Source: Escherichia coli O127:H6 str. E2348/69 (lineage in GTDB: Bacteria > Pseudomonadota > Gammaproteobacteria > Enterobacterales > Enterobacteriaceae). From it: a DNA stretch of 64,000 bases. Under the pieces are notes generated by a model. That model did not search any database, was not told the DNA's origin, and worked only from the letters and a program-made list of their open reading frames with translations. Positions within the stretch are counted from its first letter, which is position 1, and the number at the start of each line of letters is the position of its first letter. Shown here piece by piece: positions 23,662 through 41,082 of the stretch. The translations under genes were made by a program, and so were the position numbers. The stretch lies in the NCBI RefSeq assembly GCF_000026545.1, contig NC_011601.1; one strand, given 5' to 3'.

Positions 23662-23683
23662 TATTCGTCTCCAGGGAGGGACA

Positions 23684-24241
23684 ATGTCTTATTCAGAAAT
23701 CGCCGCGTGTCTGGCATACGCGGTTTCCGTCTGGCTGGCTGCCAGAAACAATGTGCATACATGGTGGATCGGCATAATTGGCAGCATATTGTACGGCTGG
23801 GTTTTTTGGTCCGTGCAACTCTATGCCGACGTTACGCTCCAGTTATTCTTCATCGCGACCAGCATCACTGGCTGGATCCACTGGCTGAAAGGTCAGGGTG
23901 GCGACATCTTGCCGGTGCGCCGAACGCAAGCCTGTCACTTTTTCCTTTTGTTGCTCTGTGCTGTCGTCGTGGCAGGCGGTTACGGCTTTTTACTCCACAC
24001 CTTTACCAATGCCTGGGCACCCTGGCTGGATTCGTTGATTTTGACCTTTAGCGTTCTGGCACAATTCATGTTGATGGGAAGACGTATCGAAAACTGGTTC
24101 GTCTGGTTAGCGGTGAATACCTTGGCAGTGCCACTGTATATGACGCGCGGTTTAAACCTGACCGCTGGCTTATATTTCCTGTTCTGGATTAACGCCTGGC
24201 ATGGTTTGTATCAATGGCGCAAAGAGTTGCAAACATCATGA
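23684..24241 (+). CDS. PnuC-family nicotinamide riboside transporter-like membrane protein (185 aa)
   Basis: Small polytopic membrane protein with PnuC-like hydrophobic pattern; good RBS (GGGAGGG); stop overlaps the next gene start (ATGA); not pnuC proper. Confidence 0.7.
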   Translation: MSYSEIAACLAYAVSVWLAARNNVHTWWIGIIGSILYGWVFWSVQLYADVTLQLFFIATSITGWIHWLKGQGGDILPVRRTQACHFFLLLLCAVVVAGGYGFLLHTFTNAWAPWLDSLILTFSVLAQFMLMGRRIENWFVWLAVNTLAVPLYMTRGLNLTAGLYFLFWINAWHGLYQWRKELQTS

Positions 24242-25242
24242 AGCCTTTTGCAACGGGCCTGGTGGTTGGTAAATTCGCGCCTTTGCATTGTGGTCATGAA
24301 AAGTTGATCAATACCGCACTGGCGCAATGTGAAGAACTGTTCATCATCAGTTATTCCGTGCCGGAAATGCCTGACTGTGAACCTGAAAAGCGCCTGACGT
24401 GGCTGCAAGTGCGCTTCCCGCAAGCGACGATTTTGGTACTGACGCCAGAGCTTGTTGCGCGTTATAACTTACCTGCCATACCGCATAACGATGCCGATGC
24501 CGACATCCACCGTCATTATGTGGCGACGCTGTGCCTGCAGATATTACGCTGTCGTCCACATGCTGTATTTACTGCAGAAGACTATGGCGATGGCTTTGCT
24601 AACGTGCTGGCGCGGCGTTTTGCCCAACCCGTTGAACACGTTCGAATGGCGCGCCCAGTTGGCGATGAAGCGCCTTCGGGAACGCTTATTCGTTCCGATG
24701 TTCACCGCTATCGCTACATGTTGGCGAATGATGTTTATTACAGTTTCGTTCGCCGTATCTGTCTGCTTGGTGGCGAATCTACCGGTAAAAGCACGCTTTC
24801 AAAAGCGCTGGCGGATGGGCTTGATACGGTGTATGTCGCTGAATTTGGCCGCGACTATTGGGAAGAAAAAAACGGAATCTTAACCGCGGATGATTTGTTG
24901 CATATCGCCTGCGAACAGGTACGCCGGGAACAACAAGCAGAAGCTAATCACTATCTTATATGTGACACGTCGCCACTCACGACCTTGTTCTATGCCCTTG
25001 ATCAATATGGTCATGCTCCGCAAGAACTTCATCAACTGGCGGAGCGGGAATACTCTCTGGTGGTGCTTTGCGGCGCAGAATTTCCCTTCGTGCAGGATGG
25101 CACCCGGCAAGGAGAGGTATTTCGCGCACGGCAACAGGTGTGGTATGAACAGGAATTGTCGCGCAGGAACATTCCTTATCTTTCGGTTTCGGGGCCACTG
25201 CAAGAGCGAGTGGAGCAAATTCTTCGCCAACTTCCCGACTGA
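24214..25242 (+). CDS. NadR-like bifunctional NMN adenylyltransferase / ribosylnicotinamide kinase lacking the N-terminal HTH domain (start at 24214 or 24238)
   Basis: Nucleotidyltransferase motif GKFAPLHCGH (compare NadR GKFYPLHTGH) and P-loop GGESTGKST (NadR kinase domain Walker A); 333-342 aa versus about 410 for full NadR. Confidence 0.8.
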   Translation: MAQRVANIMKPFATGLVVGKFAPLHCGHEKLINTALAQCEELFIISYSVPEMPDCEPEKRLTWLQVRFPQATILVLTPELVARYNLPAIPHNDADADIHRHYVATLCLQILRCRPHAVFTAEDYGDGFANVLARRFAQPVEHVRMARPVGDEAPSGTLIRSDVHRYRYMLANDVYYSFVRRICLLGGESTGKSTLSKALADGLDTVYVAEFGRDYWEEKNGILTADDLLHIACEQVRREQQAEANHYLICDTSPLTTLFYALDQYGHAPQELHQLAEREYSLVVLCGAEFPFVQDGTRQGEVFRARQQVWYEQELSRRNIPYLSVSGPLQERVEQILRQLPD

Positions 25243-25323
25243 CTTTGAACATCCTCTCGATCTTCGCCTACTTCCGGTTTATTGTGTTTTAACCACCTGC
25301 CCGTAAACCTGGAGAACCATCGC

Positions 25324-26517
25324 GTGTTTCAAAAAGTTGACGCCTACGCTGGCGACCCGATTCTTACGCTTATGGAGCGTTTTAAAGAAGATCCCCGCAG
25401 CGACAAAGTGAATTTAAGTATCGGTCTGTACTACAACGAAGACGGAATTATTCCACAACTGAAAGCCGTGGCGGATGCGGAAGCGCGCCTGAATGCGCAG
25501 CCTCATGGTGCTTCGCTTTATTTACCGATGGAAGGGCTTAACAGCTATCGCCATGCCATTGCGCCGCTGCTGTTTGGTGCGGACCATCCGGTACTGCAAC
25601 AACAGCGCGTAGCAACCATTCAAACCCTTGGCGGCTCAGGGGCATTGAAAGTGGGCGCAGATTTCCTGAAACGCTACTTCCCGGAATCAGGCGTCTGGGT
25701 CAGCGATCCTACCTGGGAAAACCACGTAGCAATATTCGCCGGGGCTGGATTCGAAGTGAGCACTTACCCCTGGTATGACGAAGCGACTAACGGCGTGCGC
25801 TTTAATGACCTGTTGGCGACGCTGAAAACATTACCTGCCCGCAGTATTGTGTTGCTGCATCCATGTTGCCACAACCCAACGGGTGCCGATCTCACTAATG
25901 ACCAGTGGGATTCCGTGATTGAAATTCTCAAAGCCCGTGAGCTTATCCCATTTCTTGATATTGCCTATCAAGGATTTGGTGCCGGTATGGAAGAGGATGC
26001 CTACGCCATTCGCGCCATTGCCAGCGCTGGATTACCCGCTCTGGTGAGCAATTCGTTCTCGAAAATTTTCTCCCTTTACGGCGAGCGCGTCGGCGGACTT
26101 TCTGTTCTGTGTGAAGATGCCGAAGCCGCAGGCCGCGTACTGGGGCAATTGAAAGCAACCGTTCGCCGCAACTACTCCAGCCCGCCGAATTTTGGTGCGC
26201 AGGTGGTGGCTGCGGTGCTGAATGACGAGGCATTGAAAGCCAGCTGGCTGGCGGAAGTAGAAGAGATGCGAACTCGCATTCTGGCAATGCGTCAGGAACT
26301 GGTGAAGGTATTGAGCACAGAGATGCCAGAGCGCAATTTCGATTATCTGCTTAATCAGCGCGGCATGTTCAGTTATACCGGTTTAAGAACCGCCCAGGTT
26401 GACCGACTACGTGAAGAATTTGGTGTCTATCTCATCGCCAGCGGTCGCATGTGTGTCGCCGGGCTTAACGCGCAAAATGTGCATCGCGTGGCAAAGGCGT
26501 TTGCTGCGGTGATGTGA
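25324..26517 (+). CDS. tyrB: aromatic-amino-acid aminotransferase TyrB (397 aa, GTG start)
   Basis: Translation from (V)[13 protein letters not shown] matches TyrB. Confidence 0.9.
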
Positions 26518-26527
26518 TTTTAATCAA

Positions 26528-26547
26528 CAGGCGGATCTCTCCGCCTG
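26528..26547 (+). terminator. hairpin after tyrB (CAGGCGGATCTCTCCGCCTG)
   Basis: Perfect 8-bp stem read directly; weak T tract. Confidence 0.45.
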
Positions 26548-26647
26548 TTCCTGACTCCAGCCATCCCCTACTATTCTGTCCCTTTTTTCGCCCACTTTTA
26601 CATCATCTATTTTCTATAAGTTTTTGAAAATTAGTGTTTTTAACTGT

Positions 26648-26663
26648 TGGTACGGATTGTGCA
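26648..26663 (+). promoter_or_regulatory. sigma-54 (-24/-12) promoter-like element upstream of the island E1 gene
   Basis: TGGTACGGATTGTGCA: TGG..AC at -24 and TGCA at -12 with canonical spacing, about 35 bp upstream of the E1 ATG. Confidence 0.5.
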
Positions 26664-26698
26664 GTAATGCGGCTGTCTATGACCATCAGGAGAAAAAC

Positions 26699-29443
26699 AT
26701 GGAGAACATGACCTCGCCCGGCACGCTGCTTAGTGGAGATAACGCGACCTGGCTTGAAGAGTACTACCAGACCTGGTTGCGTACGCCGGAAAAACTCCCG
26801 GAAGACTGGCGGCGTTTTTTTCTTTCACCTGAACTGACTGTCCAAAGCGTATCCGGTGATAACAACGTCAGCGGTGCGACGTTAAAAAAACAGGCTGCGG
26901 TAATACAACTGATCAATGCCTGGCGCACGCAGGGGCATCTGCGCGCAAAGCTTGATCCACTTGGTTTGAATCCCCCGGCTGACGTTCCCTCCCTCCAGCC
27001 TGGTTTTTGGGGATTAAGCGAAGAAGACTTGTTGCAGGAATTTAGCGTCACCTTTGGCGCACACACCACGCAAATGCCACTTAAGCAACTGCTTAACCTG
27101 CTAGAGCAAGCCTGGGCCGGTAGCCAGGCTTATGAACTTGCTCATCTGGAAAATCGTGAAGAAATCAACTGGTTGTTATCACGGATTGAGAGCAGCAATG
27201 CGCCACAAGCAGATGTACAAACCTGTATTGCTCGTTTTGAAAAACTGATGGCGGCAGAGACGTTAGAGCGTTATCTGCATACCCGTTATGTTGGGCAGAA
27301 ACGGTTTTCTCTGGAAGGGGGCGAAAGTGCAATCCCGGCGCTCGATACGCTGACAAAACGCCTGCGTGCGCAAGGTGTGGAGGAAATGGTCATTGGCATG
27401 GCGCACCGGGGAAGACTTAATGTTCTGGTTAATCTGTTGAATAAAGACCCGGCACAGCTTTTTGCTGAGTTTGAAGGCAAGCAGACGATCGGCAGTGGTT
27501 CAGGCGATGTGAAATACCACATGGGGTATTCCAGCAATCTGGAAACACCTGCCGGTTCGCTGCATGTGGCGCTGGCGTATAACCCCTCACATCTGGAGAT
27601 CGTGAATCCGGTGGTGCTGGGCCAGGTGCGAGCCAGGCAGGAACGCCGTGGTGAGGATGGTCAGGCAAAAGTGGTGGGCGTACTTATTCATGGGGATTCC
27701 GCGTTGGGCGGCCTCGGCGTCAACCAAACCACGTTTAACTTATCGCAGACTCAGGGCTACGGCACTGGCGGTACGCTACATCTGGTGATTAACAATCAGA
27801 TTGGCTTCACCACTTCCCGCTTGCAGGATATGCGTTCTTCACGGTACTGCACCGATATTGCCAAAATGGTAGCGGCCCCAATTATCCACGTTAATGGCGA
27901 TGACGTTGACGCTGTTTGCCAGGTAATGGAACTGGCGTGCGAATGGCGAGACACCTTCCGGCGCGACATCATCATCGATATTTGCTGCTTCCGTAAGCAC
28001 GGACACAACGAAAGCGATGAGCCACGTCTTACCCAGCCACAAATGTATCAGGCAGTGGATGCTCACCCTGGTACGCTCGCCCGTTATGGTGAATCTCTTG
28101 CCCGCCGCGGCCTGTTAACTCAGGCGCAACAAGATGAGATGACGGCACGCTATCGCGACTGGCTGGATAGCTGCCAGAAACGTGAACCGCAGCCTCTCAA
28201 ACCTGCAATTCACTCTTTTAGCGCTAACTGGTATGGGTTGACCAACCCTCACTGGAGCGCCCCGGTATCTACGGCATTGCCTCGGCAAAAGCTGGCAGCG
28301 TATGGTGAAATCATTTCTACACTGCCACCCGATGTGGTCGCACATCCTACCATTAAACGGCAACTGGCGTTACGCCAGGATATGGCCGCAGGTACTCAGC
28401 CAATAGACTGGGGAATGGCTGAAATGCTGGCCTATGCATCGCTTGTGGATGCGGGTGTTGGTGTGCGTCTTTCTGGTGAAGACTCAGGGCGTGGCACGTT
28501 CAGTCATCGCCATGCAGTGGTACATCATCAAACTGAAGCCCGTCGTTATCTGCCGTTACAGCATATCCGCGCTGGTCAGGCATCTTTCGATGTTTATGAT
28601 TCGGTGCTTAATGAAGAAGCGCTCTTAGCCTTTGAATATGGCTATTCAACGTCTGCGCCTCAGCAACTGGTTATTTGGGAAGCGCAGTTTGGTGACTTTG
28701 CCAACGGCGCTCAGGTTGCTATTGACCAGTTTATCTCGTCTGGCGAAACCAAGTGGGATCGCTATAGCGGTTTAACCATTCTTCTGCCGCATGGCTATGA
28801 CGGACAAGGGCCGGAGCACTCTTCTGCGCGTCCTGAGCGCTGGCTGCAACTGTGCGCAGAAAACAACATGCAGGTGGTGATGCCCAGTGAGTCAGCACAA
28901 ATGTTCCATTTGCTGCGCGGTCAGGCATTACGCCCAATGCGCAAACCGTTAGTGATAATGATGAGTAAGCGTTTACTTCGGTTTAAAGGCGCGATGAGCG
29001 AGCTTTCTGAATTTACTGATGGCGCTTATAAACCGGTAATCACCGATCCGCAATTGCATCAGCCCCAGAAAGTTAAGCGCGTTATTTTGTGTAGCGGCCA
29101 GGTCTATTACGACGTACTGGAAGCCCGTAAGCAGCGTGAGTGTGAAGATGAGGTAGCGATTGTTCGCCTGGAGCAACTCTACCCGTTCCCGGTCGCAGAA
29201 CTGAATGATGTTCTGGCGAGTTGGCCGAACTGCTGCGAATGGATTTGGTTGCAGGAAGAGCCAGAAAACCAGGGCGCGTGGCGGCAGATTCGTCATGAGC
29301 TGGCGGCACTGAAAATTAACACTCCTTACTGGCAGTATGCAGGCCGCCCGGCAGCGGCAGCTCCGGCGACGGGGTATGGGCGTGTACATAAACAACAAAT
29401 CGACGAATTTCTTGCTGCTGCGTTTGCAGATATTCAGCCATGA
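26699..29443 (+). CDS. 2-oxoglutarate dehydrogenase E1 component paralogue (SucA-like, 914 aa)
   Basis: Collinear similarity to SucA along the whole length (e.g. MAHRGRLNVLVN, GDVKYHMG, EAQFGDFANGAQV, LPHGYDGQGPEHSSAR); start moved to ATG 26699 downstream of the promoter motif and preceded by AGGAG. Confidence 0.9.
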   Translation: MENMTSPGTLLSGDNATWLEEYYQTWLRTPEKLPEDWRRFFLSPELTVQSVSGDNNVSGATLKKQAAVIQLINAWRTQGHLRAKLDPLGLNPPADVPSLQPGFWGLSEEDLLQEFSVTFGAHTTQMPLKQLLNLLEQAWAGSQAYELAHLENREEINWLLSRIESSNAPQADVQTCIARFEKLMAAETLERYLHTRYVGQKRFSLEGGESAIPALDTLTKRLRAQGVEEMVIGMAHRGRLNVLVNLLNKDPAQLFAEFEGKQTIGSGSGDVKYHMGYSSNLETPAGSLHVALAYNPSHLEIVNPVVLGQVRARQERRGEDGQAKVVGVLIHGDSALGGLGVNQTTFNLSQTQGYGTGGTLHLVINNQIGFTTSRLQDMRSSRYCTDIAKMVAAPIIHVNGDDVDAVCQVMELACEWRDTFRRDIIIDICCFRKHGHNESDEPRLTQPQMYQAVDAHPGTLARYGESLARRGLLTQAQQDEMTARYRDWLDSCQKREPQPLKPAIHSFSANWYGLTNPHWSAPVSTALPRQKLAAYGEIISTLPPDVVAHPTIKRQLALRQDMAAGTQPIDWGMAEMLAYASLVDAGVGVRLSGEDSGRGTFSHRHAVVHHQTEARRYLPLQHIRAGQASFDVYDSVLNEEALLAFEYGYSTSAPQQLVIWEAQFGDFANGAQVAIDQFISSGETKWDRYSGLTILLPHGYDGQGPEHSSARPERWLQLCAENNMQVVMPSESAQMFHLLRGQALRPMRKPLVIMMSKRLLRFKGAMSELSEFTDGAYKPVITDPQLHQPQKVKRVILCSGQVYYDVLEARKQRECEDEVAIVRLEQLYPFPVAELNDVLASWPNCCEWIWLQEEPENQGAWRQIRHELAALKINTPYWQYAGRPAAAAPATGYGRVHKQQIDEFLAAAFADIQP

Positions 29444-29475
29444 AAGGCGCACAAAAATAATAAGGAGAACATTTT

Positions 29476-30630
29476 ATGATCGAAATTACTGTCCCTGTAT
29501 TACCGGAATCTGTCACGGAAGGCACGCTGACAACCTGGTGTAAACAAGAAGGCGAGCACGTAAAACGCGATGATGTGATTGCCGAGCTGGAAACCGATAA
29601 AGTCATTCTGGAAATACCGGCCCCGCACGATGGCGTGTTAAGCAATATTATCGTCAGCGAAGGTAGCACGGTCACGTCCGCGCAACTGTTGGCGCATCTT
29701 AAGCCGCAAGCTGTCATAGAAGAAACCGTCACACCAGTCACCGAAACCCTGACGATGCCTTCCGCACGGCTGGAGGCACAGCGTAGTGGTGTCGAACTTG
29801 CTGACGTTGCGGGGAGCGGGAGAAATGGACGTATCCTGAAAGAGGATGTGCAGCGCGTTACTCCTGCACCAGCCATTCAGCCTGAACGGGTGGCGGAGAT
29901 CGCGCCAGCTAAACCCTTGACACCGGGTGCTCGTCAGGAACGTCGTGAGCCGATGTCGCGCTTACGTCAGCGAATTGCTGAGCGTCTGCTGGCTTCCCAA
30001 CAAAATAACGCCATTCTTACCACATTCAACGAAGTAAACATGCAGAGCGTGATGGATTTACGCGCCCGCTGGAAAGATCGTTTTGCCGAGAAGCACGGCG
30101 TGAAGCTGGGCTTTATGTCCTTCTTTGTTAAGGCCGTTACCCGGGCGCTGGAGCGCTTCCCTGTAGTGAATGCCAGCGTTGATGGTAACGAGATTATCTG
30201 GCGTGATTATTGCGATATCGGCATTGCAGTGAGCAGCAACCGCGGCCTGGTAGTGCCTGTGTTACGCAATGCGCAATCACTCTCTTTGGTGGAAATTGAA
30301 CGGCAAATTGCCGAATACGCCACACAGGCTCGCAATGGCAAATTGCCGCTGGAGGCGTTACAGGGCGGCACGTTCTCTATCACCAACGGCGGTACTTTTG
30401 GTTCGATGATGTCAACGCCAATCATTAACCCGCCGCAGTCGGCCATTCTTGGGATGCATGCCATCACGCCGCGCCCGGTCGCAGAAAACGGCCAGGTTGT
30501 TATTCGTCCCATGATGTACCTTGCTCTCAGCTATGACCATCGCATTATTGATGGGCAGGAAGCCGTTCAGACGCTGGTGGCAATACGCGAGCTACTGGAG
30601 TCACCGGAACAACTGTTGCTGGATCTTTAA
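29476..30630 (+). CDS. dihydrolipoamide succinyltransferase E2 paralogue (SucB-like, 384 aa)
   Basis: Lipoyl domain with ELETDKV lipoyl-lysine motif; catalytic domain with [12 protein letters not shown]. Confidence 0.9.
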
Positions 30631-30641
30631 GGAGAGCGCCA

Positions 30642-32060
30642 ATGAGTACAATTTTCGATGTGGCAGTTATGGGTGGTGGGCCAGGTGGTTACGTAGCGGC
30701 ACTGCGGGCTGCGCAGAATGGGCTTTCCGTAGTATGTATTGATGATGGTGTAAATGCTCAGGGCGAACCTTCGCCGGGCGGTACGTGCCTCAATGTCGGC
30801 TGTATTCCGTCAAAATCGTTGCTGCAATCTTCCGAACTGTACGCGCAAGTGCAGCATGAGGCGAGCATTCATGGCGTTAATGTTGACGGCGTATCTTTCA
30901 ATGCAGCTGCGATGATTCAACGTAAAGACGCCATAGTAAGCCGCCTGACAATGGGCATCGGTTTGCTGTTTAAGAAAAATAAAGTGAAGCACCTGTGCGG
31001 CCTCGCAACGTTAGAACATGCTCAGGATGAGATTTGGCAATTACGTGTAAACGATCAACAAATCCGCGCCCGTAATGTGGTGATTGCAACAGGTTCTCAG
31101 CCGCGTCAACTGCCTGGCGTTACCATTGATAATCAGCAAATTCTCGATAATCGCGGCGCCCTGGCGTTAACCGCTGTGCCGCCGCGTCTCGGTGTGATCG
31201 GCGCTGGCGTGATTGGCCTTGAACTGGGGTCTGTGTGGAATCGGGTCGGTTCAGACGTCACGTTGCTGGAGATGGCGCCAACGTTCTTGCCTGCACTGGA
31301 AGCTCGCCTGTCGAACGAAGTCCGTAAAGCAATGATTGCCAGTGGGATGAAAATGCAACTGGCAGTAGAGATTGAGGCTATTGAACAACGGGATGACGGT
31401 GTGCATGTGCGCTGGCGGCAGGGTGAGAAGCGAGAAGAAAGCCGCTTCGATAAATTAATTCTTGCCATTGGACGTGTACCGCGACTTTCTGGTGTCGATC
31501 TCGTGCAACTCGGTCTTGAAGCCGATAACCGTGGCGGTATTGCCGTCGATAACTTATGCCGTACCGGGAAAGCCGGGCTGTGGGCAATTGGTGATGTCGT
31601 GCGAGGGCCGATGCTGGCGCATAAAGCGATGGCTGAAGGTGTGGTGGTTGCTGATCAAATTGCCGGACTGGCGGTAGAGCCGATTAATTTTGCGCTGATC
31701 CCTTCGGTGATTTACACCCAACCGGAAGTTGCGTGGGTAGGGGAAAACGAGGCCTCACTGAAAGCCGCTGGCAGAGTCTTTAACAAAGGAAATTCTCTGT
31801 TTGCCGGTAACGGTCGCGCCTTAGCATTAGGCCAGGAAGGTGGGCGTTGCACGTTATACAGCGATAAACACACTGACCGCGTACTTGGCGGAGCGATTGT
31901 TGGCCCGCAGGCATCGGAGCTGATCAATGAAATTGCGCTGGCGATGACTTTTAGCGCCTCTGGCGAGGATATTGTCTGTGCGATCCATGCGCATCCGACA
32001 TTAAGCGAAGTCATCCACGAAGCAGCAATGGCCTTGAATAATAAAGCATTACACGGATAA
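30642..32060 (+). CDS. dihydrolipoamide dehydrogenase E3 paralogue (Lpd-like, 472 aa)
   Basis: FAD-binding GGGPGG, redox-active disulfide motif GTCLNVGCIPSK, C-terminal HAHPTLSE. Confidence 0.9.
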   Translation: MSTIFDVAVMGGGPGGYVAALRAAQNGLSVVCIDDGVNAQGEPSPGGTCLNVGCIPSKSLLQSSELYAQVQHEASIHGVNVDGVSFNAAAMIQRKDAIVSRLTMGIGLLFKKNKVKHLCGLATLEHAQDEIWQLRVNDQQIRARNVVIATGSQPRQLPGVTIDNQQILDNRGALALTAVPPRLGVIGAGVIGLELGSVWNRVGSDVTLLEMAPTFLPALEARLSNEVRKAMIASGMKMQLAVEIEAIEQRDDGVHVRWRQGEKREESRFDKLILAIGRVPRLSGVDLVQLGLEADNRGGIAVDNLCRTGKAGLWAIGDVVRGPMLAHKAMAEGVVVADQIAGLAVEPINFALIPSVIYTQPEVAWVGENEASLKAAGRVFNKGNSLFAGNGRALALGQEGGRCTLYSDKHTDRVLGGAIVGPQASELINEIALAMTFSASGEDIVCAIHAHPTLSEVIHEAAMALNNKALHG

Positions 32061-32081
32061 CACATACCACTGAGGGAATAT

Positions 32082-33251
32082 ATGAATTTACATGAGTATC
32101 AGGCCAAATCGTTACTGGCTGGCATGGGGATGCCGTGTCCAAAAGAGATAGCCATCCAACAGATTTCGCAACTGGCAGATGCCTGGCAACATATTGCTTG
32201 CCCGAGTAAAGGCGCGGTACTTAAAGCGCAGGTACATGCTGGTGGGCGCGGTAAAGCTGGCGGCGTAAAAGTGCTTAAGCAGCTGCCGGAAGCACAGGCT
32301 TTTGTACAGCAAATGTTGGGATCGCAACTGGTGACTTATCAGACCGGGCCAGAAGGACAGTATGTCAGCAGTATTTTACTGTGCGAAAACATTTATCCGG
32401 TACGCCAGGAACTCTATTTTGGCATGGTGGTGGATCGTGAAAGCCAGCGGGTCACGTTTATTGTCAGCCCGGAAGGTGGTGTGGAAATTGAAAAAGTCGC
32501 CCATGAGACACCGGAGAAAATCAGCAGTGTCAGCATTGATCCACTGACAGGCGTGCAGCCTTGCCATATCCGAGAAATGTTTGCTGTTCTGCAACTGGAA
32601 CACGGACTATTTGCTGCCTTTAGTCGCCTGGTTAATCAGGCGTGGAAAGCCTTTAACGAACTGGATTTTGCCCTGCTGGAAATTAACCCTCTGGTGTTGC
32701 GGGAAACGGGCGAATTTATGTGTGCAGACGCGAAAGTATCGCTGGATGATAACGCGCTGTATCGTCACCCGGAACTCCAGGTGCTACGTGATGAAACCCA
32801 GGAAGATCCACGCGAAAGCCAGGCAGCGAAGCTTGATCTTAATTATGTCTCGCTGGACGGAAATATCGGCTGCATGGTCAATGGTGCAGGGCTGGCTATG
32901 GCAACCATGGACATCATCAAGCTATACGGTGAACAACCCGCAAACTTCCTGGATGTTGGCGGTGGCGCAACCCAGGAGCGCGTCAGTGAAGCCTTTCGGC
33001 TGATTGTTTCCGACGGCAAAGTGAAAGCCATTCTGGTTAATATTTTTGGTGGGATTGTCCGTTGCGACATGATCGCCAGAGCCATTATTCATGCTCTGAA
33101 TGAGGCCCGTATCACCCTGCCTGTCGTGGTGCGTCTCTCCGGTAATAACGCTGCCGAAGGGCAGCGGTTACTGGCAGAAAGTGGCCTGACGGTGGAAGCC
33201 GTCAATTCTCTGGATGATGCCGCTAAACGCATCATTGCGTTACTGAATTAA
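32082..33251 (+). CDS. succinyl-CoA synthetase beta subunit paralogue (SucC-like, 389 aa)
   Basis: ATP-grasp N-terminus MNLHEYQAKSLL, collinear with SucC. Confidence 0.9.
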   Translation: MNLHEYQAKSLLAGMGMPCPKEIAIQQISQLADAWQHIACPSKGAVLKAQVHAGGRGKAGGVKVLKQLPEAQAFVQQMLGSQLVTYQTGPEGQYVSSILLCENIYPVRQELYFGMVVDRESQRVTFIVSPEGGVEIEKVAHETPEKISSVSIDPLTGVQPCHIREMFAVLQLEHGLFAAFSRLVNQAWKAFNELDFALLEINPLVLRETGEFMCADAKVSLDDNALYRHPELQVLRDETQEDPRESQAAKLDLNYVSLDGNIGCMVNGAGLAMATMDIIKLYGEQPANFLDVGGGATQERVSEAFRLIVSDGKVKAILVNIFGGIVRCDMIARAIIHALNEARITLPVVVRLSGNNAAEGQRLLAESGLTVEAVNSLDDAAKRIIALLN

Positions 33252-33263
33252 CAGGAGGTTAAG

Positions 33264-34136
33264 ATGAGCGTTTTGATCAACAAACACACGCGGGTACTGG
33301 TGCAGGGCATTACCGGCAAAAACGGCACATTTCATACAGAGCAGGCTATTGCGTATGGCACGCAGATTGTGGGTGGAGTGACGCCAGGTAAGGGCGGGCA
33401 ACGGCATCTGGATCGCCCGGTTTTTGATTCAATGAAAGAAGCGATGCGACAAACTGAGGCTGATGCCAGCGTGATTTATGTGCCTGCACCGTTTGTGCTG
33501 GATTCTGTTGTTGAGGCTATTGAAGCTGGCGTCAAATTGGTTGTGGTGATCACTGAAGGTGTACCGACACTGGATATGGTGAAAGTTCGTCGGCTGCTTG
33601 ACTGCCACCCGGATGTGCGGCTGATTGGGCCAAACTGCCCAGGAGTTATCACGCCGGGTGAGTGCAAAATCGGGATTATGCCTGGTGAAATCCACCGCCC
33701 AGGGCGTATTGGGATTGTTTCCCGCTCCGGTACATTAACCTACGAAGCTGTAGCGCAAACCACGGCGCTGGGACTTGGGCAATCCACCTGTATTGGTATT
33801 GGCGGCGATCCGGTTCCGGGGACTAACTTTATTGATGCGCTGCGTTTATTCGAAAATGATCCGCAAACAGACGCGGTAATTATGATCGGTGAAATTGGTG
33901 GTAATGCGGAAGAACGGGCCGCGGAATTTATTCGTCATGAAATGAATAAACCGGTCGTAGGTTATATTGCCGGTGTTACTGCACCAAAAGGAAAACGCAT
34001 GGGACACGCCGGAGCCATTATTTCTGGCGGTAGCGGCAGTGCGGAGGATAAATTCCGGGCGTTCGATAAAGCAGGCATGGCATGGACACGAAATCCAGCA
34101 TTACTTGGCGAAACGTTATGGAATGTTATTAAGTAA
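33264..34136 (+). CDS. succinyl-CoA synthetase alpha subunit paralogue (SucD-like, 290 aa)
   Basis: CoA-binding N-terminus, catalytic His region (GHAGAII) conserved. Confidence 0.9.
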
Positions 34137-34154
34137 TCCATAAATGAATATCAA

Positions 34155-34178
34155 GGGAGCATATCGCTCCCTTTTTTT
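34155..34178 (+). terminator. rho-independent terminator after the SucD-like gene
   Basis: GGGAGC-ATATC-GCTCCC stem-loop followed by T7. Confidence 0.7.
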
Positions 34179-34291
34179 ATCTGTGTGGTAAGGGAATCAT
34201 CTTTTAATAACTGTGCGGAAAACCGCGCATAAAATAAAAAGGATAAATAGCTAACTCATTAAATAACAAAGCGTTATTAAAAAATTAAAGA

Positions 34292-34307
34292 TGGCATAGC
34301 TCCTGCA
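34292..34307 (+). promoter_or_regulatory. second sigma-54 (-24/-12) promoter-like element, upstream of the transporter gene
   Basis: TGGCATAGCTCCTGCA: TGGCA at -24 and TGCA at -12 with canonical spacing, about 40 bp upstream of ATG 34348. Confidence 0.5.
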
Positions 34308-34347
34308 ATAGCCAGGCAGGTTTTTTATTTTTCACAATGAGGTGAAT

Positions 34348-35847
34348 ATGTCATCAATATCCCATGGCGCACCACAAAAGCGTCGAATTATCCCTAATCC
34401 CGGCCTGTGGTTGGCGATCATTGCCGGAATTATTATTACCCTTCTGCCACTGGGCGATACCTTGCCCGTCGCCGGACAAAATATGATCGCCATTCTGGTG
34501 TTTGCCATTATTGTCTGGATCAGCGAAGCGATGGATTACACCGCCAGTGCAATTGTTATTTCCGCACTGATTATCTTTATGGTTGGTTTTGCCCCGGATA
34601 TGAATCACCCGGACACGATCCTTGGCACCGCGAAAGCGCTGAAAATGACTCTGTCGGGTTTTTCTAATTCTGCTCTGGCGCTGGTGGCAGCAGCAATGTT
34701 TATCGCGGCGGCAATGACCATTACCGGGCTGGATAAACGCATTGCGCTGTTTACTATGTCGAAAATAGGTGCCAGCAGCCGCAGCATTATTATCGGTGCC
34801 ATTGTGGTGACCATCGTCCTGAGCCTGGTCGTACCCAGTGCCACTGCCCGTACGGCTTGCGTGGTGCCGATTATGATGGGGGTCATTGCGGCATTTAAGG
34901 TGGATAAACATTCACGTTTAGCGGCGTCAATGATGATTGTTATCGCCCAGGCGACCAGTATCTGGAAAGTTGGTATTCAAACTTCGGCGGCGCAAAACCT
35001 GCTTTCTATCGGTTTTATCAATAAAACTTTCGGCGCCGGGCATTCTGTCAGCTGGCTTGACTGGCTGTTAGCGGGCGCGCCCTGGAGCCTCACCATGTCG
35101 GTGATCCTCTATTTCCTCGCACGTAAATTGTTGCCGCCAGAAACGGAAGCTGTTGAAGGGGGGAGCGAGGCCATTAAAAAAGCACTCGCAGAGTTAGGGC
35201 CAACCACCGGTAAAGAAAAACGCTTGATCGGTATTTCGCTGTTGTTACTGCTCTTTTGGTCTACTGGCGGAAAATTGCACAGTATTGATACCACCTCTGT
35301 CACCCTTGCCGGACTGGCGATTATGTTGCTGCCAGGCATCGGTGTAATGAGCTGGAAAGAGGTCGAAAAACGTGTGCAGTGGGGCACGTTGCTTATGTTT
35401 GGTATTGGTATCAGCCTGGGGTCCACGTTGCTTGATACACAGGCAGCTTCATGGATGGCGAACTATGTGGTGAAAGGTTTTGGTCTCGATGGCTTGCCAT
35501 CATTAGCCATCTTCGCGATTCTCGCCGCTTTCTTGATAATCATTCACCTGGGGTTTGCCAGTGCCACTGCGCTAACTGCCGCATTGCTGCCCATCCTGAT
35601 TAGCCTGTTAAGCAGTCTGCCGCCAGAACTCGGCGTTAACCCGGTCGGCATGACCATTCTGCTCGCCTTCAGTGTCAGTTTTGGCTTCATCCTGCCGATT
35701 AACGCGCCACAAAATATGGTGTGTATGGGTACGGATACCTTCACGCCACGCCAGTTTACCCGTGTGGGACTGTACCTGACGGTGATCGGCTACCTGTTGT
35801 TGCTACTGTTTGCCGCCACCTGGTGGAAAATTTTAGGTCTAATGTGA
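34348..35847 (+). CDS. DASS/CitT-family dicarboxylate (anion) transporter (about 499 aa)
   Basis: Polytopic membrane protein with two-repeat architecture typical of the divalent anion:Na+ symporter / CitT family; start at ATG 34348 after RBS GAGGTG. Confidence 0.8.
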   Translation: MSSISHGAPQKRRIIPNPGLWLAIIAGIIITLLPLGDTLPVAGQNMIAILVFAIIVWISEAMDYTASAIVISALIIFMVGFAPDMNHPDTILGTAKALKMTLSGFSNSALALVAAAMFIAAAMTITGLDKRIALFTMSKIGASSRSIIIGAIVVTIVLSLVVPSATARTACVVPIMMGVIAAFKVDKHSRLAASMMIVIAQATSIWKVGIQTSAAQNLLSIGFINKTFGAGHSVSWLDWLLAGAPWSLTMSVILYFLARKLLPPETEAVEGGSEAIKKALAELGPTTGKEKRLIGISLLLLLFWSTGGKLHSIDTTSVTLAGLAIMLLPGIGVMSWKEVEKRVQWGTLLMFGIGISLGSTLLDTQAASWMANYVVKGFGLDGLPSLAIFAILAAFLIIIHLGFASATALTAALLPILISLLSSLPPELGVNPVGMTILLAFSVSFGFILPINAPQNMVCMGTDTFTPRQFTRVGLYLTVIGYLLLLLFAATWWKILGLM

Positions 35848-35858
35848 GGAAACCAACG

Positions 35859-36932
35859 ATGTCATTACAAATTGCTGTTGAAAAAGTGCGTTGGTTAGCT
35901 GCCGGGCTGCTGGAACTTAATGGCTGTGATGCCGATATCGCTCAGGATGTGGCGGAACATATGATTGAAGCGGAACGTTATGGTTTTGCCAGCCACGGCG
36001 TCACGCTGCTACCGAAATATCTGGAAAATATCGCTCGTGGCGATGTAACCGCGAATGCCCGCCCGGAATGCTTAACAAGTGAAGGTAATTTACAACGTTT
36101 TCATGCCCACAATGGCTTTGGTCAACACGCCGGAAAAGTGGCGGTAAATGCTGCCATCGAACAAACAAAACACCGCGGTTTTTGCCTGTTAACGTTGTGC
36201 CATGCGCATCATTTAGGGCGTATGGGGCATTACGGGCAAATGGTTGCTGATCAAGGCCTGGCGATGCTGGCCATGAGTAACGTCACCGGGCGTCCGGCAC
36301 TGGTCGCCCCGTGGGGCGGTGCGGAACCGCGTATGACCACTAACCCTTTCTGCTTTGCCTGGCCGTTCAGTGATGGGCGTCCGCCGATTCTGGTTGATTT
36401 TGCCACCAGTAGCATGGCGCTAAATAAAGCACGGGTAATGTCGTCCACCGGGAAGCAGGCCGCGCCGGGACAATTGATCGATGCACAGGGGAATCCAAGC
36501 AATGATCCTGGGGTGTTATTCAGCAATCCTCCAGGGGCGTTACTGCCATTTGGTGAGCATAAAGGATTTGGCCTGGCACTGATGATTGAAATGATGGCGG
36601 GGATCTTATCTGGTGGTGACACGATCGCCGAAGATCATCAGACGGATGGATCTGCGCATAATCATCTTTTTGCGTTGATTATCGATCCTGATCAATTCAC
36701 CGATCTGGCAGGGGAGAAAGGGCAGTTCTTTGCGGATTATCTGTTAGCTACGCAGCCTCAACCTGGCGGCAATCCGGTGATTTACCCCGGTATGCCAGAA
36801 GCTGCCAACCGGGAACGCAATGCGAAGATGATTACGATCCCGGTATCATTCTGGTCCTGGGTAGTTGAACATTACGCCCGCAAAGGTATCGATTTGGGGT
36901 TACATCCTCAGGAATCAGCATTAGCTGGATGA
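35859..36932 (+). CDS. Ldh_2-family (malate / L-lactate / sulfolactate type) NAD(P)-dependent 2-hydroxyacid dehydrogenase (357 aa)
   Basis: Family-typical segments (GxxSHG region GFASHG, EHKGFGLAL); start placed at ATG 35859 after RBS GAGGAAA, rejecting the upstream extension that overlaps the transporter. Confidence 0.8.
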   Translation: MSLQIAVEKVRWLAAGLLELNGCDADIAQDVAEHMIEAERYGFASHGVTLLPKYLENIARGDVTANARPECLTSEGNLQRFHAHNGFGQHAGKVAVNAAIEQTKHRGFCLLTLCHAHHLGRMGHYGQMVADQGLAMLAMSNVTGRPALVAPWGGAEPRMTTNPFCFAWPFSDGRPPILVDFATSSMALNKARVMSSTGKQAAPGQLIDAQGNPSNDPGVLFSNPPGALLPFGEHKGFGLALMIEMMAGILSGGDTIAEDHQTDGSAHNHLFALIIDPDQFTDLAGEKGQFFADYLLATQPQPGGNPVIYPGMPEAANRERNAKMITIPVSFWSWVVEHYARKGIDLGLHPQESALAG

Positions 36933-38279
36933 TTCTGGTCGATAAACTTGCGGTTGAATCTGATGTTTGTTGAGTTTGTCATATAAAGTCTTGCGCGGCA
37001 GCTGTAATAGCCGCGCTGTCAAACTGACCTGGCCTTCCGTTTGTCGCAGCATATCTTCGATTAACTTTTTCTCGAAAGCATCAATGCAGGCGGTAAGGCC
37101 ACTCTCTTCTTGCTGAGTCATTGGTACTGGCTGGTGGTGGGTCAGTAAACCGAGAACAAAACGCTCTGCATTGTGTTTAAGTTCACGTACATTGCCAGGC
37201 CAACTTTGTGACTGCAACCAGGCCAGTAACATGGGAGAAATATCAGGCAGAGGACGATTATATTTTTGTGCCGCCTGACTGGCGAACCAGTAAAACAGTT
37301 CAGGGATATCTTCTCGTCGTTGGCGTAGAGGTGGAATATTCAGGCTAACCACATTCAGACGATAATAGAGATCGAGACGAAACAGATGTTCTTCGCTGCG
37401 ACGCAGTAAATCTTCCTTGGTCGCTGCAATAACACGGCAATTCACCGGAATTAATTGATTGGCACCTAATCGTTCAATGGTTCTTTCCTGCAATACACGT
37501 AGCAGTTTTACCTGCATTCCTGATGGCATTCCCTCTATTTCATCGAGAAATAACGTACCACCATTTGCATGTTCAATTTTTCCAATACGCTTTTTAACCG
37601 CACCGGTAAATGCGCCCGCCTCATGACCAAATATTTCGCTTTCAAACAACGTTTCTGGTAAGCCTGCACAGTTTAAGGCAACAAACTGCCCCTGACGGCG
37701 GGTACTCCAGTGATGCAGCATTCTGGCGACGACTTCTTTACCACAACCTGTTTCACCATAAATAAGGACATCGGCACCGGTATCTGCGACATTAAGGATC
37801 ATTTTACGCAGTTGTTGCATCTGCGGACTACGACCAATCAGCACCGGGCCATTTTCCTGTTGCAGATTCGCCAGTAATTGCTGATTTTCTAAAACCAATC
37901 GCCGTTTTTCTACCGCTCTGGCAATAATACTCAATAATTTATCTGAGCTACTTGGTTTCTCAATGAAATCGAATGCACCATTACGCATGGCATCCACCGC
38001 CATTTCCACGTCACCGTGTCCGGTAATTAAAATAACCGGAATTTTGCTATCCATTTCGTTGATGTAACTGAGGAGCTCTAGTCCTGATATTCCAGGTAAC
38101 CTGACATCGGTCAGTATAATAATGTTGGCCTGACTTTGAATAAGGGGAATACTGTGTTCTGCATCGCAACAGGAAATAACACGATAACCAGCCAGCGTGA
38201 GCGTTTGTTCACAGGCAAAACGTACATCGTCACTATCCTCAATATAAACTATAGTAATTTCACTGGATTTATTATTCAT
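36921..38279 (-). CDS. kguR: sigma-54-dependent two-component response regulator (NtrC/DctD family, 452 aa)
   Basis: Receiver domain with phospho-acceptor Asp (IILTDVRLPG), AAA+ domain with Walker A GETGCGKE and the sigma-54 contact motif GAFTGA, C-terminal Fis-type HTH; gene name from memory of the UPEC KguS/KguR system. Confidence 0.85.
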   Translation of the reverse strand: MNNKSSEITIVYIEDSDDVRFACEQTLTLAGYRVISCCDAEHSIPLIQSQANIIILTDVRLPGISGLELLSYINEMDSKIPVILITGHGDVEMAVDAMRNGAFDFIEKPSSSDKLLSIIARAVEKRRLVLENQQLLANLQQENGPVLIGRSPQMQQLRKMILNVADTGADVLIYGETGCGKEVVARMLHHWSTRRQGQFVALNCAGLPETLFESEIFGHEAGAFTGAVKKRIGKIEHANGGTLFLDEIEGMPSGMQVKLLRVLQERTIERLGANQLIPVNCRVIAATKEDLLRRSEEHLFRLDLYYRLNVVSLNIPPLRQRREDIPELFYWFASQAAQKYNRPLPDISPMLLAWLQSQSWPGNVRELKHNAERFVLGLLTHHQPVPMTQQEESGLTACIDAFEKKLIEDMLRQTEGQVSLTARLLQLPRKTLYDKLNKHQIQPQVYRPESSS

Positions 38280-40092
38280 GTTCTTCTCCCCATTCAGGCC
38301 AGGTTAATGTCATTACTGCGCCGCCTTCAGGATGATTACTGGCGTGGAGTGCGCCGTTCGAATTTCGGACAATTTCGCTGACTATTGCCAGTCCCAACCC
38401 CATTCCTCTACGTTTAGTGGTAAAAAATGGTTCAAATATGCGATCGACAACTTCAGGTGCAAAACCGCCACCGCTGTCTTTAATGGTAATAATAACTTTG
38501 TTATTTGCCTGGCGAATGGCGATATCCAGTCGTTTGTAAGAGCTACCTTCCATAGAATCTAAGGCGTTGCTAATTAAATTACTGAATATCTGTTCAAGAC
38601 CGAGCTCATCGCAATTGACAAATAACGGCATGGATGGGGCTTTTATTCGTCGCTCAATATTATTTTTCTCCATGCTGTGATTAAGTAACGCCACGGCGCT
38701 ATACATCACTTTGATGACATCGGCAGAACCTTTAGGTACGCGATGGCGCGAGGCAAATGCTTTAAGTTCGGAAATGAGCTGCGTCATCCGCTCAATCACT
38801 GAAATAATGTGTTTCAGATTCTGTTCAACCTGCGGATACATCTCTTTTTTTAGCATAGTACGCGCGTTATCAGTAAGTGCGTGAATGGCGGCTAACGGTT
38901 GATTTTGTTCATGGGCAATTTCGGTTGCCATCTGTCCAAGCGCCGCCAGTTTGCTGGACTCTGCCAGTTCACTACGCGTAATTTGTAATACTTGTTCAGC
39001 CTGACTGCGCTCTTTTATCTCCTGTATTAATTTTTGATTGATCAATTCCAGGGCAGATGTACGCTCTTTAACCTGTTTCTCTAATGTTTCATTCGCCAGT
39101 GTTAATAATTGTTGTGCATGAGATCGCATTCTCCAGTATTTAATAAATAACAAAAACAGCAGGTAAATAATTAGCGTAATGACTAACGAAATAGCCCATG
39201 ACCAGTACAGGTTATCTAAGGGGACCATAATTGTCATTTTCCAGTTAAATTCTGGAATGGCTATTTGTTGCGTATAATATTGCGGGAATAAACAGAGTTG
39301 TTCTTTTTTATCTTTCAGGAAAGTAAAATTGCTCACGGTATAACAGGGATAATAATCCGCCGGTAAAAGATTGTCGAGACTATATTGGCGGGTAGATTGT
39401 AGTTTTTGTTTTGCCTGAACAGGTAACGGTTGCAGTGTTCGCATTCGCCATGGCGATTTTGAACTTAAAAATATAATCCCATGTTCATCATTCACGATAA
39501 TATTTTCAGGACCTTCGGCCCATGCTTTTTCAATTTCATTAAGACTTATTTTTACTACTACAACACCGACAATTTTTCCTTTATCTTTTATACTTGTAGA
39601 GAGGAAGAATCCCGGTGTATTCGTAGTGCTACCAATACCGTAAAAGCGTCCATTTAAGCCAGACATGGCGTGTTTATAATAGGGGCGATAGCTATAATTT
39701 TGCCCTACATAGCTGCCGGGGTCCTGCCAGTTGCTAGAAGCGATGGCCTTACCTTGGGTATCCAGAATAAATATTGCTGCGGTTTTGAGTTGAGTATTGA
39801 AATGTGCAATTCGTTGATTGAGTTCGCTGGACATCATATCGTCAGGCGTAATTACCGCCTGACGGATGATATGGTCTGTTGAGAGCATATAGGGTAAAAC
39901 ATAAAATTGCTCGATGGTGGAATATAATGTGGACTTATACATTTCAAGCCGCATTTTATCGGTACCGGACAAGGTATTAAAACGCAAGTGCAAAAAAGCG
40001 ATTGAAACCGCGAGCATGATAAGAAAAAGTGAAATGCTTGTAATGTGAAATCGCCATTTGTTCTTAAATATATAATTCCACGATATTTTCAT
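38272..40092 (-). CDS. kguS: periplasmic-sensing histidine kinase (DctB-like, 606 aa)
   Basis: Two transmembrane segments flanking a large periplasmic domain, H-box ATEIAHEQNQPL, ATP-binding G-boxes; 8-bp overlap with the regulator gene; gene name from memory. Confidence 0.85.
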   Translation of the reverse strand: MKISWNYIFKNKWRFHITSISLFLIMLAVSIAFLHLRFNTLSGTDKMRLEMYKSTLYSTIEQFYVLPYMLSTDHIIRQAVITPDDMMSSELNQRIAHFNTQLKTAAIFILDTQGKAIASSNWQDPGSYVGQNYSYRPYYKHAMSGLNGRFYGIGSTTNTPGFFLSTSIKDKGKIVGVVVVKISLNEIEKAWAEGPENIIVNDEHGIIFLSSKSPWRMRTLQPLPVQAKQKLQSTRQYSLDNLLPADYYPCYTVSNFTFLKDKKEQLCLFPQYYTQQIAIPEFNWKMTIMVPLDNLYWSWAISLVITLIIYLLFLLFIKYWRMRSHAQQLLTLANETLEKQVKERTSALELINQKLIQEIKERSQAEQVLQITRSELAESSKLAALGQMATEIAHEQNQPLAAIHALTDNARTMLKKEMYPQVEQNLKHIISVIERMTQLISELKAFASRHRVPKGSADVIKVMYSAVALLNHSMEKNNIERRIKAPSMPLFVNCDELGLEQIFSNLISNALDSMEGSSYKRLDIAIRQANNKVIITIKDSGGGFAPEVVDRIFEPFFTTKRRGMGLGLAIVSEIVRNSNGALHASNHPEGGAVMTLTWPEWGEEHE

Positions 40093-40272
40093 TCATCATC
40101 CATTGAATGCATTTATATTTATCATCAGTATATTCCCTGAACAATGTTTGCGAGAACCAAAAGAGTGCCATTGTGTGAATGTGTAAGCAGAATAACCGTG
40201 GCAATGTGTGGTTTATCGCACAGGTATTCCAAATGTGATCATGCTCTTTTTATGTGACAAATCCGCAGATAA

Positions 40273-41082
<810 letters not shown>

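Follow-up and report, generated by a model that had tools for sequence, protein, structure and literature searches.

The interval between the alanine racemase gene alr and the aromatic amino acid transaminase gene tyrB of Escherichia coli O127:H6 str. E2348/69 contains two open reading frames on the plus strand, which encode a PnuC-like membrane transporter and a two-domain NadR-like enzyme and are referred to here as pnuC' and nadR'. The interval occupies positions 23662-25323 of a 64,000-nucleotide stretch of contig NC_011601.1, called the window in this study, and the local gene order is dnaB, alr, pnuC', nadR', tyrB. The pair probably forms a self-contained salvage cassette for nicotinamide riboside (NR), combining facilitated uptake of NR, trapping by phosphorylation and adenylylation to nicotinamide adenine dinucleotide (NAD). 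In the proposed pathway, NR would diffuse across the inner membrane through PnuC', a seven-helix facilitator of the Pnu family, the P-loop kinase domain at the C-terminus of NadR' would convert it to nicotinamide mononucleotide (NMN) and so trap it in the cell, and the N-terminal H-x-G-H nucleotidyltransferase domain would convert NMN to NAD. The two genes would be translationally coupled and transcribed by readthrough from alr, without a NadR operator or a riboswitch. The adjacency of pnuC' and nadR' fits the Pnu principle, in which a facilitator is combined with a kinase whose phosphorylation of the vitamin keeps it in the cell (PMC5749112), and it also fits the pnuC-nadR 'salvage III' route described by Rodionov et al., in which NadR without the helix-turn-helix (HTH) domain is the rule outside Enterobacteria (PMC2330246). 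The pair is already annotated in RefSeq, as a PnuC transporter and an AAA family ATPase. An earlier model-made reading of the DNA letters, called here the sequence-only reading, had named no characterisation of this module, and no paper describing the E. coli locus was found in the literature searched. The same reading had placed a two-gene pair with its motifs between alr and tyrB, and all of them lie where it had put them (Table 1).

PnuC' belongs to the Pnu family, as had been proposed for the first protein of the pair. The Pfam family PF04973 (NMN_transporter) matched it from end to end (profile positions 1-175 of 175, E 3.4e-48), and its score of 75.4 bits on the PnuC equivalog TIGR01528 passed the cut-off of 42.45. 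On the enterobacterial PnuC model NF011926 (PRK15397) it scored 62.9 bits and failed the cut-off of 335, and it was 23% identical to K-12 PnuC. Judged by its sequence, PnuC' is a paralogue of the enterobacterial PnuC and not a second copy of it. PnuC' aligned with residues 51-230 of the PnuC structure 4QTN, and this alignment and the length of 185 residues are consistent with a seven-transmembrane Pnu core that lacks the optional N-terminal helix. As compared to the 239 residues of K-12 PnuC, the part without a counterpart in PnuC' consists of about 21 N-terminal residues and internal loop insertions. The motif WxxW(x)3N/D, which has a ligand-binding role in the Pnu family (PMC5749112), was kept in all of the 67 partner transporters (67/67), ending with N in 55 and with D in 12. 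PnuC' ends this motif with N and not D, and so does the PnuC of N. mucosa, whereas PnuT has D (D166) at that position (PMC5749112); the correlation of N with PnuC and D with PnuT comes from a single member of each type. PnuT with thiamine pyrophosphokinase, as well as PnuX/RibM, combine a seven-transmembrane core, which PnuC' probably has too, with the same motif and the same co-location with a kinase as in the pair described here, and the NadR-like nature of the kinase partner points to NR and not to thiamine or riboflavin. NR is thus the putative substrate of PnuC', as suggested by the TIGR01528 score and the NadR-like partner.

NadR' matched Pfam AAA_28 with an E value of 2.7e-31, and its residues 6-319 aligned to TIGR01526 (NadR NMN adenylyltransferase) with an E value of 5.8e-41. 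The AlphaFold model of NadR' had a predicted local distance difference test (pLDDT) score of 90.7, with a low-confidence LID loop (pLDDT 55, residues 281-290). When this model was compared with the Protein Data Bank (PDB) by Foldseek, the best eight matches were all NadR structures (8x7f, 1lw7 and 6gye/6gyf/6gzo among them, E 1.5e-19 to 4.6e-13), with a template modelling (TM) score of 0.72 against 8x7f. The model and the Foldseek matches support a two-domain architecture, a Rossmann-like nucleotidyltransferase followed by a P-loop kinase. A profile search of the PDB with the subfamily returned NadR entries only (E 2.7e-37 to 2.7e-17). The motifs GKFxPLHxGH, SGTxxR, LGGESxGKS, D-T and DGTR were invariant among 11 diverse subfamily members; the H-x-G-H and Walker A motifs, on which the sequence-only reading had based its assignment, are both borne out by the alignment. 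The invariant residues include K12, H17, G19 and H20 in the H-x-G-H region and S147, T149 and R152 in SGTLIR. In Salmonella NadR, the residues aligned with K12, H20 and R152 of NadR' are K72, H80 and R212, all of which contact ATP/NAD (PMC12421817). The lack of an N-terminal DNA-binding domain, also predicted earlier, holds as well: the protein starts 10 residues before the GKF motif, which begins at residue 11, the longest in-frame 5' extension would add 8 residues, and the match to PRK08099 spans profile positions 66-387 only, that is, the part after the HTH domain. On the basis of these motifs and folds, NadR' is predicted to have NR kinase and NMN adenylyltransferase activities.

Several results weigh against a plain NR salvage function and are considered here together. 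NadR' scored 140.8 bits on TIGR01526 and 90.4 bits on NF005988 (PRK08099), the cut-offs being 341 and 201, respectively; it was 29% identical to E. coli NadR, and its N-terminal nucleotidyltransferase domain was only weakly matched in Pfam (CTP_transf_like, E 0.077). The P-N-G-W segment, found in every characterised or solved NadR sequence compared (E. coli, H. influenzae and L. lactis NadR and 9x6f among them), is replaced throughout the subfamily by P-x-N-D-A-D...HRH[FY], in which P82 and R92 of NadR' are invariant and N84 is almost so. The P-N-G-W segment probably belongs to the part of NMN adenylyltransferases that recognises nicotinamide. Because this canonical loop is replaced, NMN recognition may differ in the subfamily. 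No experimental or biochemical data on any member of the NadR' subfamily were found in the literature searched. No NAD-linked regulatory element was found either, as described below, and nadR' stands at the end of a larger operon in many relatives. Since NadR' falls below the curated equivalog cut-off, it was filed as a member of a divergent NadR-like subfamily and not as an equivalog of the characterised NadR. The NR specificity of NadR' is putative for the same reasons, namely the 29% identity, the scores under the cut-offs and the missing P-N-G-W loop. The family, fold and catalytic motifs of the NadR-like enzyme named by the sequence-only reading stand, and the name NadR itself was an overstatement. 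The larger operon and the missing loop are the main reason why plain NR salvage is proposed as probable and not more firmly.

The larger operon was seen when 82 loci were classified (80 species-level loci, E2348/69 and Chania). In 33 of them nadR' was the last or second-to-last gene of a longer, tightly packed operon, in the order of a MoxR-like AAA_3 ATPase, a 324-aa protein, a 587-aa protein with a HEIGHH metallopeptidase (HExxH) motif and a von Willebrand factor A (vWA)-like DxSxS motif, in 13 loci a radical SAM/SPASM protein, an all-helical protein of about 200 aa, a PaaK/F390-synthetase-like adenylating ligase, in 24 of the 33 loci PnuC', then NadR', and in six loci, all Oxalobacteraceae, a membrane zinc-ribbon protein. 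Operons of this type occurred in Proteobacteria, Verrucomicrobiota, Myxococcota, Acidobacteriota and others, for example in Pseudoduganella flava (L099, 7451-15801) and Lysobacter changpingensis (L062, 594-5056). Sequence searches of NCBIfam, Pfam and PDB gave no family for the 324-aa, 587-aa and 199-aa proteins, and the model of the helical protein (pLDDT 88) had AFDB50 matches that were nearly all 'uncharacterized', the two named ones being likely spurious. In a neighbour-joining (NJ) tree without support values, the long-operon loci were on deeper branches, and the two-gene type of Enterobacterales, Andreprevotia, Chitinimonas and Pseudomonas formed one derived clade, save for a gammaproteobacterial locus (L066) with the ligase. 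No homologues of the other larger-operon genes are present in the window. The position of nadR' at the tail of this operon in 33/82 loci suggests that the original role of the subfamily may not be plain NR salvage. The occurrence of the larger operon with the same enzyme subfamily in many phyla was unexpected and is the more novel lead, which lies beyond the window.

The pair could instead be the surviving tail of this larger system and use the same chemistry on another nucleoside-like substrate, such as nicotinic acid riboside or a metabolite not yet recognised. The subfamily-wide absence of the P-N-G-W loop, the scores under the curated NadR cut-offs, the place of nadR', with or without pnuC', after the above genes in deeper relatives, and the presence of thiamine and riboflavin transporters in the Pnu family (PMC5749112) all speak for this reading. 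We nevertheless regard it as unlikely in view of the closest sequence and structure matches, which are all NadR or NMN adenylyltransferases, and of PnuC', which passes the PnuC equivalog cut-off and has N in its WxxWxxxN/D motif, within the limit of one member per type noted above. In addition, the clade of E. coli, Enterobacter, Pseudomonas, Andreprevotia and Chitinimonas has the two genes only, except L066, so that the pair there must work alone on a generally available substrate. A more specific proposal is that NadR' and PnuC' form a module for output or supply within a widespread multi-gene system, and that the E. coli pair is what remains of it in reduced form, acting on a non-NR nucleoside or feeding NAD to a NAD-consuming process. 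This seems rather improbable to us. PADLOC defence models gave no meaningful match for PnuC' or NadR', and an anti-phage defence role of the pair was rejected on this result. For the larger-operon proteins PADLOC gave no match beyond a weak viperin-like similarity of the radical-SAM protein.

Returning to NR salvage as the probable function, the coupling of the two genes was found to be widely conserved. Among the 80 species-level loci, which come from Proteobacteria, Verrucomicrobiota, Planctomycetota, Acidobacteriota, Myxococcota and other groups, pnuC' lies directly 5' of nadR' in 67. With few exceptions among the 73 paired loci listed, the two genes either overlap or are only a few nucleotides apart. 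The ATGA overlap in E2348/69, already noticed in the sequence-only reading, was confirmed. The 22-nt gap between alr and pnuC' had no convincing promoter or terminator, which suggests co-transcription with alr; a single weak promoter-like site lies within alr (23471-23498), and terminator-like matches were not more frequent than in shuffled sequence. In the simplest reading, readthrough from alr is probably the source of transcription into the pair. No riboswitch (NAD+-I/II or pnuC motif) was matched in Rfam at E <= 1 in 22500-25500, and no NadR operator TGTTTA-N6-TAAACA was matched with three or fewer mismatches in 20057-26339. As to whether the pair displaced the tyrB promoter, the leader of tyrB is kept with and without the pair, and a pattern search gave no convincing TyrR box. 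The ratio of nonsynonymous to synonymous divergence (dN/dS) between the two E. coli alleles described below was 0.06 for pnuC' and 0.16 for nadR', and the pair is clearly under purifying selection.

The full-length pair was found in 867 of the 5,426 complete E. coli genomes, once per genome and at alr-tyrB in every case examined. The carriers include CFT073, Nissle 1917, UM146, ST131 and E2348/69, and among the matches listed the annotation gave the pair as two genes, neither of them labelled a pseudogene. In E. coli without the pair, the spacer from alr to tyrB measures 252 bp and contains no gene, as seen in the K-12 derivative C600; the sequence-only reading was right that K-12 lacks both genes. 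Canonical nadR and pnuC were each present in 5,424 of the 5,426 genomes, and their near-universal presence makes the alr-tyrB pair an additional set, as had been supposed. A divergent allele of the pair, 90-95% identical, was found in 83 E. coli genomes. In strain C10, the carrier examined, this allele (L094, 3519-5077) occupies the same alr-tyrB slot, in a genome without the 2-oxoglutarate island that neighbours the locus in E2348/69, and it differs from the E2348/69 allele (23684-25242) by 33 amino acids in NadR'. The synonymous divergence (dS) between the two alleles was 0.26-0.32, roughly threefold the value for alr, dnaB and tyrB (about 0.09), which means that the alleles are older than the flanks or that one of them was imported by recombination. 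The two deeply diverged alleles may be old balanced alleles, or one may have come by recombination from another Escherichia lineage. We propose that K-12-type lineages lost the pair, whereas B2-type E. coli and another E. coli group, the one with the divergent allele, retained it.

The history of the slot also bears on the word 'inserted', which the sequence-only reading had used for the pair and which is not upheld here. The identical alr-tyrB slot is occupied by the pair in Enterobacter hormaechei, E. cloacae, another Enterobacter, three Kosakonia and two Superficieibacter species, and it is empty in Salmonella, Citrobacter, Klebsiella and Kluyvera. The segment that is present or absent begins just past the alr stop and ends 3 nt past the nadR' stop, and the tyrB leader of about 75 bp is kept in every genus compared, occupied or empty. 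Empty sites carry at least one GCCGGATG...CCGGC palindrome, of the repetitive extragenic palindromic (REP) type. The G+C content of the pair is 51.5% as compared to 51.9% for the window, without a compositional anomaly. No flanking direct or inverted repeats were found around the pair, no mobility genes neighbour it in the annotation, and no genuine plasmid copies were found. Between genera, the proteins of the pair diverge in step with alr and tyrB (r = 0.82), and the enterobacterial pair sequences form one clade in the NJ tree. Long residence in the slot with repeated loss is favoured from these comparisons, because of the shared slot and boundaries, the native G+C content, the lack of repeats, mobility genes and plasmid copies, the correlated divergence and the single clade, and it would fit no worse than a B2-specific gain. 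Some exchange among enterobacteria, through recombination within the conserved flanks, is hinted at by the high dS between the E. coli alleles and by the NJ tree, in which E. coli groups with Enterobacter.

A recently acquired genomic islet, brought by horizontal transfer into the B2 lineage between alr and tyrB, is doubtful in the light of the same data. Such an event would agree with the patchy distribution in E. coli, with the empty sites of the four genera, with the allele dS, which suggests that at least one allele arrived by recombination, and with the unsupported grouping of E. coli with E. hormaechei and E. cloacae, but the slot and its boundaries are identical in four genera, the G+C content is native, repeats, mobility genes and genuine plasmid copies were not found, phage homologues are only about 30% identical, and the divergence follows that of the flanking genes within a single enterobacterial clade. 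A decaying remnant without present function, as might be suspected from the absence of the pair in most E. coli and several genera without obvious cost and from its redundancy with canonical pnuC and nadR, is highly improbable given the intact reading frames, the low dN/dS values, the invariant catalytic motifs and the preserved Shine-Dalgarno sequence and coupling overlap. Two further features of the slot were observed. A 15-nt direct repeat, TCTTCGCC(A/T)ACTTCC, occurs at 25221-25235 in the 3' end of nadR' and at 25261-25275 in the tyrB leader, 40 nt apart; it is not at both deletion boundaries and is probably due to chance. The K-12-type empty spacer (L002, 3264-3437) consists of one REP-like palindrome and about 110 bp of AT-rich sequence, and for the latter neither the occupied sites nor the empty ones of Salmonella, Citrobacter, Klebsiella and Kluyvera have a counterpart.

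Among known systems, the canonical PnuC (b0751) and trifunctional NadR (b4390) of E. coli and Salmonella are of the same families as the pair and have the same proposed chemistry and the same catalytic motifs. On the other hand, the genes of the pair are adjacent and overlapping and the canonical genes are in separate loci; NadR' lacks the HTH repressor domain and the P-N-G-W segment, the locus has no NadR box, and the two proteins are below the cut-offs of NF011926, NF005988 and TIGR01526. The NadR proteins of H. influenzae (1LW7) and L. lactis (6GYE) are likewise bifunctional two-domain enzymes that have no DNA-binding domain, and they show a matching fold and, outside enterobacteria, linkage to pnuC in operons; they differ from NadR' by an identity of 19-26% in structural alignments, by the separate long-branched subfamily of NadR' and by its replaced P-N-G-W loop. 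As far as could be established, none of the characterised HTH-less NadR enzymes belongs to the NadR' subfamily. Phages carry PnuC-like (PHROG 1880) and NadR-like NMN adenylyltransferase (PHROG 3462) genes, which both proteins of the pair match (E 6e-29 and 3e-46), and HTH-less NadR-like homologues were found in 694 phage records at an identity of about 30%, but the surroundings of the E. coli locus are not those of a phage. The combination of PnuC with a NadR lacking the HTH domain is thus of a well-known kind, and the subfamily is a distinct, long-branched paralogue group, for which no characterised representative was found. If active, the pair would give B2-type E. coli (CFT073, Nissle 1917, ST131 and E2348/69) a route from NR to NAD outside the control of the NadR repressor, and several Enterobacter and Kosakonia species also carry it. 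This could be of importance in places where the available pyridine source is NR or NMN from the host, or under NAD depletion, and for the engineering of NMN or NAD the pair would be a compact, ready-made cassette of two genes. The locus is old in enterobacteria and varies by presence or absence, so that the pair is neither a B2-specific insertion nor a B2-specific pathogenicity marker.

Table 1. Coordinates in the window of the pnuC'-nadR' pair, its motifs and neighbouring features
Feature	Position	Strand	Remarks and basis
alr (alanine racemase)	22582..23661	+	Upstream flank; stop TAA 23659-23661, 22 nt before the pnuC' start
GGGAGGG, Shine-Dalgarno-like	23674..23680	+	3 nt 5' of the pnuC' ATG; read from sequence
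pnuC' (185 aa)	23684..24241	+	PF04973, TIGR01528; PGAP name 'nicotinamide riboside transporter PnuC'
WFVWLAVN, Pnu ligand-binding motif WxxW(x)3N/D in transmembrane helix 6	24095..24118	+	PnuC' residues 138-145
ATGA, overlap of pnuC' stop and nadR' start	24238..24241	+	Translational coupling, predicted from sequence
nadR' (334 aa, two-domain NadR-like, without HTH)	24238..25242	+	Profile matches and fold; PGAP name 'AAA family ATPase'
GKFAPLHCGH, nucleotidyltransferase H-x-G-H motif	24268..24297	+	N-terminal adenylyltransferase domain; sequence
PHNDADADIHRHY (P-H-N-D-A-D-A-D-I-H-R-H-Y), subfamily-specific loop and helix start	24481..24519	+	Alignments; stands in for P-N-G-W
SGTLIR, second nucleotidyltransferase signature	24676..24693	+	Counterpart of ISGAQIR in E. 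coli NadR
GGESTGKST, Walker A P-loop	24769..24795	+	C-terminal ribosylnicotinamide-kinase-like domain; AAA_28, alignment
D243-T244, Walker B equivalent	24964..24969	+	IDTD in canonical NadR
DGTR, LID-region motif	25096..25107	+	ADGLR in canonical NadR
Conserved tyrB leader	25246..25323	+	Common to occupied and empty sites in all genera compared; right edge of the presence/absence polymorphism
tyrB (aromatic amino acid transaminase)	25324..26517	+	Downstream flank; start codon GTG
tyrB-aphA island	26518..40100		2-oxoglutarate island
E1	26699..29443		Island gene
odhB	29476..30630		Island gene
lpdA	from 30642		Island gene
sucC, sucD, DASS symporter, Ldh-family oxidoreductase, sigma-54 regulator, ATP-binding protein			Island genes following lpdA, in this order
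aphA	40369..41082		Beyond the island
qorA (NADPH:quinone reductase)	20043..21031	-	Annotated frameshifted pseudogene

The neighbourhood of the pair in E2348/69 has further features. The region between tyrB and aphA holds an island with a complete extra set of 2-oxoglutarate dehydrogenase and succinyl-CoA synthetase genes, its own transporter and a gene for a sigma-54-dependent regulator, and the ATP-binding protein of the island may be the sensor kinase of this regulator. By position and content, the island appears to match the '2-oxoglutarate metabolism' block c5030-c5041 of CFT073, which is reported to be specific to uropathogenic E. coli (PMC2831201). It is missing from K-12-type genomes and from strain C10. 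In every enterobacterial genus examined, aphA is the next conserved gene past tyrB, with yjbS between them in K-12 (aphA at 5815-6528 in L002 and 7547-8260 in L003), and in E2348/69 it lies about 14 kb 3' of tyrB. In Salmonella, AphA is the phosphatase of the periplasm that forms NR from NMN, and this NR is taken up by PnuC. Ancestrally, only tyrB stood between the putative NR-salvage pair and aphA; this proximity may be due to chance or may be left over from a functional cluster. The qorA gene, which is annotated as a frameshifted pseudogene in E2348/69, is intact in K-12-type and C10 genomes.

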